Both the position numbers and the translations under genes were made by a program. DNA of 64,000 nucleotides from a virus (taxonomy: Duplodnaviria > Caudoviricetes): the IMG/VR virus record IMGVR_UViG_3300037422_000298. One strand, written 5' to 3'. Below, piece by piece: positions 20,721 to 21,517 of the stretch. The first letter of the stretch is position 1. Each line of letters opens with the position of its first letter. The notes beneath the pieces are model-generated. The model had not been told where the DNA came from, searched no databases, and saw nothing but the letters and a program-made list of their open reading frames with translations.

Positions 20721-20819
20721 GGCTGGTTACCACCAGCGTCGTGCTTACAAGCGCCGCAAGGCACCTTCTACCATCAGACAGGAAGAAACCAGCACGACGC
20801 ACTCGGTGACCAGACACCA
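20721..20819 (+). ncRNA. RNA A: ~100-nt Y-RNA-like structured RNA
   Basis: 9-bp CTGGTTACC/GGTGACCAG, ACCA/ACTC internal loop, 10-bp GCGTCGTGCT/AGCACGACGC, TACAAGC, GCAA tetraloop hairpin, 3' ACCA. Confidence 0.7.
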
Positions 20820-20820
20820 T

Positions 20821-20949
20821 CGCGGGTAAGCGCACTGGGTGCGCGCTCCTCTCATAAGGGAAAAACCTCACAGTCACATCTCGCCGTGCACGCGCGGCAT
20901 CCGCAACTGTGTACAAGCCAGCTAGGTTCGATTCCTAGACCCGCGACCA
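20821..20949 (+). tRNA. RNA B: tRNA-like, CAT anticodon, 59-nt structured variable-arm insert
   Basis: Acceptor CGCGGGT/ACCCGCG-A-CCA, D arm, CTCATAA loop, T arm CTAGG-TTCGATT-CCTAG; insert 20863-20921. Confidence 0.7.
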
Positions 20950-20979
20950 CCTGACAACTGAAGAGCGCGCCAAATTTTC

Positions 20980-21119
20980 CGGGGGTCACGCCGGTCGGTC
21001 CGGCACTTGAATACGGATCAAGCAAACACTCAACAGCGGCACTCGGCGTCGACGTTCACGCGAAGACGCCACTCGTCGAATGTTTACAAGCTAGTGGTTC
21101 GACTCCACAACCCCCGACC
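20980..21119 (+). tRNA. RNA C: tRNA-like, ACG (Arg) anticodon, 70-nt structured variable-arm insert
   Basis: Acceptor CGGGGGT/ACCCCCG, GCCGG/CCGGC D arm, CTTGA-ATACGGA-TCAAG, TTCGACT T loop; insert 21023-21092. Confidence 0.65.
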
Positions 21120-21242
21120 GAAGTCGTCATCCAGAGGTGCTCACACGCATAGCTCAATCGAAGAGCGTCGCCCTGATAAGGCGAAGGTTGCGGTCTCATA
21201 AACCGCTGCATTCAACACCCAGCATCTCACCTCGACGGCTTC
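21120..21242 (+). ncRNA. RNA D: tRNA-Ile(GAT)-like body on an extended interrupted stem
   Basis: GAAGTCGTC/GACGGCTTC and GAGGTGCT/AGCATCTC stems enclose a D arm, TCGCC-CTGATAA-GGCGA and a T-position arm with CTCATAA loop. Confidence 0.7.
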
Positions 21243-21309
21243 TACCTACGCTCTCCGAAGAACGCGACGCAGCCTCGTGCCGCCTAGCGGTCGTAAAGAG
21301 GGCACCTAT

Positions 21310-21383
21310 AGCGGGGTGGAGCAGCCTGGTAGCTCGTTGGGCTCATAACCCAAAGGTCGGTGGTTCAAATCCACTCCCCGCAA
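21310..21383 (+). tRNA. tRNA-fMet (CAT), initiator type
   Basis: Unpaired 1:72, GGG/CCC anticodon-stem pairs, CTCATAA loop, TTCAAAT T loop. Confidence 0.9.
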
Positions 21384-21386
21384 CTA

Positions 21387-21517
21387 GAAGCCGTCATCAC
21401 GAAGCGCTCACACGCATTGACCAACGGTAGGTCATCAGTCTCGTAAACTGACGGTTGCAGGTTCAAGTCCTGCTGCACCTCGCAAGAGGATCTCCAGCGT
21501 TTCACCTCGACGGCTTC
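21387..21517 (+). ncRNA. RNA E: tRNA-Thr(CGT)-like body on an extended interrupted stem
   Basis: GAAGCCGTC/GACGGCTTC and GAAGCGCT/AGCGTTTC stems enclose a D arm, TCAGT-CTCGTAA-ACTGA, GCAGG-TTCAAGT-CCTGC and an extra GCAA hairpin. Confidence 0.75.

Follow-up and report, generated by a model that had tools for sequence, protein, structure and literature searches.

Five small RNAs, A to E, encoded within a 64-kb window of DNA from a virus (Duplodnaviria; Caudoviricetes; IMG/VR record IMGVR_UViG_3300037422_000298), are members of a large family of small RNAs of jumbo phages, in which a constant two-helix module common to all five, hereafter called the handle, is combined with exchangeable cargo. 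The window is the whole stretch of DNA that was analyzed, and positions given without a locus name refer to it. We propose, with a probability of roughly one half, that these RNAs constitute a modular, non-canonical family of Y-RNA-like molecules, in which the handle would dock a Ro60-like protein of the phage and the tRNA part would engage tRNA-handling factors.

Ro60 and Y RNAs are conserved from bacteria to humans, and the choice of the RNAs that are handled by Ro60 is poorly understood. Next to the Ro60 genes of bacteria and phages lie Y RNAs that contain tRNA-like domains (Chen et al. 2014, PMC4201824), the Ro60 of phage phiLo binds two adjacent Y-like RNAs, Yrl1 and Yrl2 (PMC12135203), and TROVE proteins of jumbo phages have been placed in RNA repair (PMC7824862). 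The unusual points of the present family are a new recognition signature, three wirings of the handle, and its insertion into complete tRNAs. An original prediction, made from the letters of the window, knew of no described RNA family with this layout. We found no description of the handle in the literature or in Rfam, but the layout is not without precedent, as Ro60-linked tRNA-like RNAs were already known (PMC4201824).

Anatomy of the five RNAs

The cluster contains six RNA genes, all on the + strand and downstream of a promoter-like element, and five of these carry the handle. It consists of a distal helix, an internal loop, and an 8-bp proximal helix that ends in GCU/AGC and is followed by single-stranded YACANGC. 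In the internal loop, the strand heading to the distal helix has an invariant CUC, and the loop portion of the opposite strand begins with A. The original prediction had described a shared module with an A(C/T)(C)TC-type loop; such a loop is present, and the two invariant features define it more sharply. The motif positions that it gave, TACAAGC at 20746, 20912, and 21085 and CACACGC at 21142 and 21409, are exact. Minimum free energy folds reproduced the order of helix, internal loop, and helix in all five RNAs, with z-scores of -5.9 (A), -4.3 (D), -4.5 (E), -2.2 (B), and -2.6 (C). When both strands of the whole window were scanned with descriptors, RNAs A to E were recovered and no others.

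The wiring of the handle is permuted, as had also been predicted. It forms the 5'/3' terminal stem of A, D, and E, with a 9-bp distal helix, a 4x4 or 5x5 loop, and a proximal helix of 8-10 bp, and it forms a hairpin in the variable arm of B and C. RNA A (20723-20813) has a terminal-type handle of 9 bp, a 4x4 loop ACCA/ACUC, and 9-10 bp, followed by UUACAAGC; the handle wraps two small hairpins, and a tRNA body is absent. RNA B (20821-20949) is a tRNA(CAU) with a 7-bp acceptor stem and an encoded ACCA, and its handle is the variable-arm hairpin at 20869-20918 (50 nt, UACAAGC included). RNA C (20980-21119) is a tRNA-Arg(ACG), also with a 7-bp acceptor stem, and its variable-arm hairpin at 21032-21091 (60 nt) has an ACUC/ACUC loop and UACAAGC. 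Both B and C have normal D, anticodon, and T arms, and when the variable-arm hairpin was removed in silico, ARAGORN called them tRNA-Met(CAU) and tRNA-Arg(ACG), respectively.

In RNA D (21120-21242), the terminal-type handle has 9 bp, a 5x5 loop AUCCA/ACCUC, 8 bp, and CACACGC, and encloses a tRNA-like body with a GAU anticodon loop. RNA E (21387-21517) has a terminal-type handle with the loop AUCAC/ACCUC and CACACGC, and its tRNA-like body has a CGU anticodon loop and an additional GCAA hairpin. The handles of D and E enclose D, anticodon, and T arms, and the acceptor stem is merely a 3-bp stub, GCA/UGC. The Rfam tRNA scores of D and E are 41.8 and 46.7 bits. The cloverleaf of tRNA (RF00005), in which the acceptor stem has 7 bp and the 3' end is free, is therefore seen in B and C once the variable-arm hairpin is set aside; it is lacking in D and E, with a 3-bp stub inside the handle, and in A, with no tRNA body.

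The sixth gene (21310-21384) encodes an initiator-type tRNA(CAU) without a handle (ARAGORN; Rfam, 59.8 bits). The initiator hallmarks, a 1:72 mismatch and three G-C pairs in the anticodon stem, were read from the sequence, in accordance with the normal tRNA-fMet that had been predicted in the cluster.

A large family under selection as RNA

The original prediction had proposed a covariance model and a comparison with Rfam as checks. A covariance model of D and E, designated R1, was run on 64 IMG/VR loci, which were selected solely for encoding a relative of the von Willebrand factor A (vWA) protein of the window (see below). R1, which scores 136.5 bits for D and 117.5 bits for E, gave full-length matches in most of the 64 loci, and a large, covarying family was recovered. 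About 120 further copies of the handle, nearly all on one strand, are present in 57 jumbo-phage loci, where copies were counted without sequence similarity by two simple descriptors. The terminal-type descriptor found 75 copies on the gene's strand, none on the opposite strand, and none in shuffled sequences; the variable-arm descriptor found 45 copies, versus two on the opposite strand and two in shuffles.

The cargo of the terminal type is either 66-115 nt (tRNA-like) or 18-53 nt (A-like), and non-tRNA small bodies of the latter size lie in handles at 14 places besides RNA A. Most members of the family have D, anticodon, and T arms. Among the terminal copies, many enclose a tRNA whose acceptor stem has the full 6-7 bp, others contain a 3-bp stub, and both forms are recurrent. 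Nearly all variable-arm hairpins have a T arm within a few bases, and the tRNAs that host them have at least 10 anticodon identities.

Helix sequences differ while pairing is kept, as had been noticed within the window. In an alignment of 12 close homologues, 95.7% of the cells are paired and 15 pairs change on both sides, which none of 500 shuffles reached. Among 69 distinct members, 96.2% of the cells are paired, and changes on both sides were found in 34 of 34 pairs, including all 17 pairs of the handle. G-U pairs are frequent in the family alignment; therefore, selection acts on the + strand RNA. The structure of the handle is thus under selection as RNA. A DNA-level repeat or mobile element was rejected as an explanation, since what the copies share is structure and not sequence, G-U pairs occur often, and the copies are biased to one strand by 75:0.

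The single-stranded letters are constant: ACA is found in 67 of 67 members, the next G in 64 and the C in 66 of 67, and CUC in 66 of 66. The end of the proximal helix is usually GCU/AGC across the family. A fixed ruler separates the loop A from ACA: 89 of the 95 terminal copies have 14-15 nt between them, and 41 of the 45 hairpin copies have 14-16 nt. Invariant unpaired letters of this kind are the pattern expected of a recognition site.

A search of IMG/VR for an exact 15-base pattern of the D/E stem turned up chance matches only (loci L001-L120 ignored), and a blastn search of the cluster against 50,697 phage records matched the initiator tRNA only. A comparison of 20500-21700 with Rfam (E<=10) gave no family except tRNA, and neither a Y-RNA-type family nor a ribozyme family was among the matches.

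An alternative that we consider rather unlikely is that the handle is a cassette for processing or stability, that is, an endonuclease signal or end clamp that controls the release of tRNAs from a long transcript or their splitting within it; the tRNAs would then be the product, and there would be no partner ring. Many cargos are complete tRNAs with a 6-7-bp acceptor stem, in these, YACAN is situated exactly at the junction of the 5' leader and G1, and the 3' end continues into an A/C-rich single strand. The genes are closely packed; the 3' end of RNA C abuts the first base of D, and the initiator tRNA is 2 nt from E. RNase III sites of phage T7 also have two helices split by an internal loop, which the approximately 17 bp of the handle resemble, and the geometry of the handle (9 + 8 bp) is compatible with an RNase III stem of about two turns. 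However, if the variable arm contained such a signal, cleavage would split tRNAs B and C along with at least 45 others, and the forms with a 3-bp stub (D, E, and many others) cannot become mature tRNAs, yet are conserved. Some copies are without any tRNA, and the invariant unpaired letters and the fixed ruler point to specific recognition and not to generic double-strand cleavage. A search for a phage RNase III in five phage genomes found none.

The ruler also brings to mind the H/ACA guide RNAs of archaea and eukaryotes, in which the distance between the top of the pocket and ACA follows a 14-16-nt rule. Like the handle, they have a lower stem, an internal loop, an upper stem, and an ACA located directly 3' of the lower stem, and the 14-15 nt between the loop top and ACA in the handle match the rule. 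That the RNA acts alone or as a guide, either as an H/ACA-like guide for pseudouridylation with a TruB/Cbf5-type enzyme or as a new self-cleaving ribozyme, is nevertheless extremely unlikely. The loop of the handle is small (about 5+5 nt) and partly invariant, so it would be unable to guide to varied targets; ACA is internal and not 3 nt from the 3' end; no kink-turn is evident; and TruB was found in none of the five phage genomes examined. To our knowledge, bacteria have no Cbf5, Nop10, or L7Ae. A known ribozyme was rejected, as Rfam gave no match to any ribozyme family at E<=10.

Promoter, expression, and close relatives

A promoter-like element, TTGACA-N17-TAGGGT (20685-20713, + strand), precedes RNA A, and its sequence and spacing are kept in all seven relatives that reach it (L121, L122, L125, L127, L130, L131, and L133). 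The single sigma-70 promoter claimed in the original prediction is thus backed by conservation, but a generic scan of the cluster for sigma-70 promoters and terminators called nothing, this element included. In three of four metatranscriptome runs, only the initiator tRNA was covered. One soil metatranscriptome contained a single 589-nt contig from a relative with about 91% identity, spanning B to D; this is a weak hint of transcription, and carry-over of DNA is possible. The case for expression of the cluster accordingly consists of the conservation of the promoter and this contig from one relative.

These seven are the contigs with sufficient upstream DNA that encode a relative of the 143-residue protein located just downstream of the cluster. 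All seven relatives have RNAs A to D downstream of the promoter, and three of them (L122, L131, and L133) have RNA E. Changes in the helices are compensatory while the unpaired letters stay constant; the helices of B covary, and compensation in RNA A was seen in L131 and L133. The anticodons change: GAU, GAC, AUU, and UAU were found in D, CGU, AAA, and CGA in E, and CAU and UAC in B. Wherever a relative has C, its anticodon is still ACG. In RNA D, the T and D loops range from canonical to degenerate. The anticodon loops that had been predicted to be presented by the cluster are borne out for B (CAU), C (ACG), D (GAU), and E (CGU), but the CAU in the inner loop of RNA A is not conserved among the relatives.

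Changing anticodons would be expected if the RNAs were decoys or spare parts against host defences that target tRNAs, operating without Ro60, in which the anticodon arms bait anticodon nucleases and the handle only stabilises the bait. While the anticodons vary among close relatives, the 5-bp stem and the 7-nt loop (commonly CU-NNN-AA) persist, and the phage also has arrays of Leu, Ser, and initiator tRNAs. A-type copies, however, have no anticodon arm, and the invariant CUC and ACA letters and the ruler are left unexplained. We regard this alternative as doubtful; moreover, baiting is compatible with docking of the handle to the Ro60-like protein and not opposed to it.

A Ro60-like protein encoded at 9291-11237

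The vWA protein used to select the loci has 648 amino acid residues (9291-11237, + strand) and comprises an N-terminal beta domain, a TROVE-like ring of helical repeats, and a C-terminal vWA domain with DxSxS, of which D444, S446, and S448 are invariant in the protein family. An AlphaFold model was built with 26 homologues (pLDDT, 75.6). In a Foldseek search, the top 10 matches of the model were all Ro60, from human, Xenopus, D. radiodurans, Thermus phage phiLo (E-values from 4e-7 to 1e-5 over 500-566 columns; TM-scores of 0.28-0.40). A second structural alignment of the whole model was dominated by vWA domains (Z = 15); because of this, residues 1-435 were folded and searched separately. Against 48,161 representatives of the Protein Data Bank (PDB), this part ranked Ro60 proteins first to third (Z = 8.9, 7.0, and 6.4, at a root mean square deviation (rmsd) of 13-18 Å), followed by unrelated helical repeats with Z-scores of 5.9 and below.

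At the fold level, the model thus has the predicted architecture of Ro60, a TROVE-like ring plus vWA, together with an extra N-terminal beta domain, in line with the TROVE-like vWA protein that the original prediction had mentioned. Sequence comparison gave a different picture: Pfam matched VWA_2 and not TROVE, and searches of PDB sequences with phmmer and with a profile gave only vWA proteins and no Ro60.

The non-coding region 11245-11461, located 3' of the Ro60-like gene, has a good T arm and GUCGAACG, a bacterial Rsr motif. As a candidate Y RNA it was rejected, as its z-scores against shuffles are -0.1 and +1.9 and it is absent in L135-L139.

Genomic linkage of the RNAs and the Ro60-like gene

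A full-length R1 match lies within 10 kb of the Ro60-like gene in 44 of 59 loci, and most of the other loci have cut-off flanks. In five records of 221-619 kb, which are 92-100% complete, all seven full-length R1 matches are located 3-13 kb from the gene, while ordinary tRNA matches are scattered in the same genomes. There is one cluster per genome; in the closest complete relative (221 kb), the descriptors found the RNAs of the cluster and two borderline matches elsewhere, which we judged to be false.

The arrangement differs between lineages. In the lineage of the window, the array comes after a block of four other genes. In six loci (L173, L175, L179, L183, L185, and L191), whose Ro60-like proteins are 51-61% identical to that of the window, the array is directly upstream of the Ro60-like gene on the same strand. 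As the array adjoins the gene in these divergent lineages, the linkage has survived rearrangement, which suggests a functional tie between the RNAs and the Ro60-like gene.

Other genes share this neighborhood. The Ro60-like ring of the window is encoded inside a ubiquitin-like cassette (9291-16954), an arrangement of which we found no description. The cassette includes genes at 11670-12620 (E2-like label, no Pfam hit), 13887-14300 (weak Prok-JAB), 14362-14742 (a small Ubl-like candidate), and 16346-16954 (ThiF/E1, solid). In 53-55 of 59 loci, such E2-like, JAB-like, Ubl-like, and ThiF genes all lie no more than 10 kb from the gene for the ring.

The handle could therefore dock another factor, encoded by the phage (for example, a protein of this cassette) or by the host, with the Ro60-like gene as a mere neighbor. 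The genes of the cassette are linked to the Ro60-like gene as tightly as the RNAs are. Urm1-Uba4 and TtuB-TtuC are Ubl/E1 pairs that serve as sulfur carriers in tRNA thiolation in other organisms, and the conserved letters of the handle are unlike the known Ro60 sites. On the other hand, we noticed no other recognised RNA-binding fold within 10 kb, in a survey that covered some of the open reading frames with Pfam, PHROGs, and one fold search, and where the array directly precedes the Ro60-like gene, that gene separates the array from the rest of the cassette. Docking of such a factor is in our estimation a distinctly unlikely alternative to docking of the Ro60-like ring. The gene for RtcB is present in four of the five phage genomes but lies within 10 kb of the Ro60-like gene in only two loci.

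Only one public phage record, KX853510.1 (Virus Rctr197k; locus L211), contains the Ro60-like protein. The gene is annotated there as conserved hypothetical (misc_feature) and directly follows an array of about 36 tRNA genes (7085-10914 of that record). A full-length handle RNA (67.9 bits) lies 9 kb downstream in an unannotated gap (21839-21965). Neither tRNA finders nor Rfam detect the handle RNA genes, and the sole public phage record that has them leaves them without annotation.

Comparison with known RNAs and the proposed mechanism

Y RNAs (YrlA, Yrn1 of D. radiodurans, and the RNAs of phiLo) are the closest parallel. Like A to E, they are small RNAs near a Ro60-type gene, often several per locus; as in the terminal-type RNAs, their 5' and 3' ends pair into a long, loop-interrupted stem, and the remainder mimics tRNA. 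In Yrn1, a stem-loop lies between the T- and D-like arms and can be modelled as an anticodon arm; the terminal stem would then occupy the acceptor position, as in D and E. Proximity to a Ro60-like gene and a tRNA-like domain are therefore shared with Y RNAs, whereas a terminal stem with a CGAA motif and a match to a Y-RNA-type Rfam family are lacking. The handle has CUC, A, and YACANGC instead of CGAA or GNCGAAN0-1G. CGAA occurs in some copies (in E, and in C as GUCGAAUG) and is not conserved family-wide; as the Ro60 motif of the handle it was rejected as a family feature, the invariants being CUC, A, and ACANGC. Also unlike in Y RNAs, the handle can occupy the variable arm of a tRNA that is otherwise complete or enclose non-tRNA hairpins, the putative partner is too divergent for Pfam TROVE, and its gene is up to 13 kb away.

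RNAs B and C resemble tRNAs with a long variable arm (Ser, Leu, Tyr, and Sec; the allo-tRNAs, PMC5389517; and engineered aptamer-tagged tRNAs, PMC7590224), which have a full cloverleaf and a helix at the insertion-tolerant variable arm. In contrast to class II tRNAs, the inserts of B and C measure 50 and 60 nt, contain two helices separated by an internal loop, have a signature conserved across at least 10 anticodon identities, and are separated from the T stem by about 10 single-stranded nt.

H/ACA guides differ from the handle in the points given above. The motif of the Class I RNAs of Dictyostelium, which we take to contain UUACAGCAA, is close to GCUYACANGCA of the handle. Like the terminal handles, these RNAs have a 5'/3' stem, a conserved unpaired motif (11 nt in the Class I RNAs) directly after the 5' strand, and a variable remainder, but they are eukaryotic, 42-65 nt long, and have one short stem with no internal loop or second helix; the RRM protein Rnp1A is the only direct binder shown (PMC7919456). 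We take this likeness as a lead and not as a relationship.

On these grounds, we suggest that a trans-acting protein docks on the handle, and that this protein is most probably the divergent Ro60-like ring of the phage (9291-11237). The handle, wired as a 5'-leader/3'-trailer stem or as a variable-arm hairpin, would hold the ring in the manner of a modular analogue of Y RNAs. The cargo, which may be a complete tRNA, a tRNA body with a 3-bp acceptor stub, or small hairpins, would in its tRNA forms bring in or mimic the substrates of tRNA-handling factors, such as nucleases and repair or modification enzymes. The Y-RNA-like, protein-binding handle of the original prediction thus remains the best reading by fold and gene linkage, and its binding part is what we infer.

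Several points weigh against this proposal. The conserved letters differ from the known Ro60 sites (CGAA or GNCGAAN0-1G), and the comparison with Rfam up to E<=10 gave no match to a Y-RNA-type family. The likeness to Ro60 is one of predicted fold, with TM-scores of 0.28-0.40, a high rmsd, and negative results from the sequence profile and Pfam TROVE. In the window, 9.5 kb separate the Ro60-like gene from the cluster, which begins downstream of it. The linkage could be to the cassette or to a tRNA island and not to the Ro60-like protein, because the gene sits in the cassette and beside tRNA arrays. Finally, all the surveyed loci come from one related group of phages, and the counts given above are not independent events.

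A more far-reaching version of the proposal, which we put forward as a speculation and consider unlikely, is that working, chargeable phage tRNAs (B, C, and at least 45 others, with at least 10 anticodon identities) carry a docking arm for the viral Ro60-like ring. By such self-marking, the phage would label its own tRNAs, together with tRNA-shaped baits of freely changing anticodons, for a ribonucleoprotein-like particle of viral origin that surveys, repairs, or protects RNA in the conflict with tRNA-cutting host defences.

In any case, there is linkage between a viral Ro60-like protein and dozens of RNAs that join a fixed handle to interchangeable tRNA cargo in three wirings, one of which leaves a complete tRNA intact. 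If the handle binds the ring, the family would provide a natural and modular system in which to study how Ro60 is directed to tRNA-related targets. The variable-arm members would be, as far as we found in the literature, the first tRNAs naturally carrying a protein-docking arm, and a new player would enter the conflict between phage and host over tRNA cleavage.

Other features of the window and its relatives

Between D and the initiator tRNA is a 67-nt spacer (21243-21309, + strand), which is conserved by eye in L122, L125, L127, and L131. It has ends of the type GCUCUCC...GAGGGC, an inner hairpin, and CUAGC, and may be a small RNA or a leader structure. Upstream of the cluster, the open reading frame at 19700-20335 has no relatives in viral contigs.

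A basic protein of 143 amino acid residues (21540-21971) is encoded directly 3' of the RNA cluster in every close relative. It has 22 relatives in a large protein collection and belongs to no Pfam or PHROG family. Since the handle has a much wider distribution, this protein is probably not its general partner.

In L130 (1247-1908), a copy of D is broken off in the D loop; after it come about 400 nt with a minus-strand open reading frame for a PD-(D/E)XK protein (PDDEXK_5), a new tRNA-like gene, and a complete second copy of D, whose anticodon differs (UAU). The locus looks like the replacement of a cassette by a nuclease-bearing insert. In L121, the 221-kb relative (L121:5360-5565 and 5770-5850), RNA C is rearranged, with an expanded anticodon loop and a mini-tRNA that has acceptor, D, and T arms and is without an anticodon arm. 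An additional element with GGUACAAGCC is located between D and the initiator tRNA in this relative, and RNA E is absent.

Elsewhere in the window, an array at 29263-30367 contains five tRNA genes with Leu anticodons (UAA, GAG, CAG, UAG, and CAA). At 75-76 nt each, they are without the long variable arm that characterizes tRNA-Leu of bacteria. L121 has the same array.

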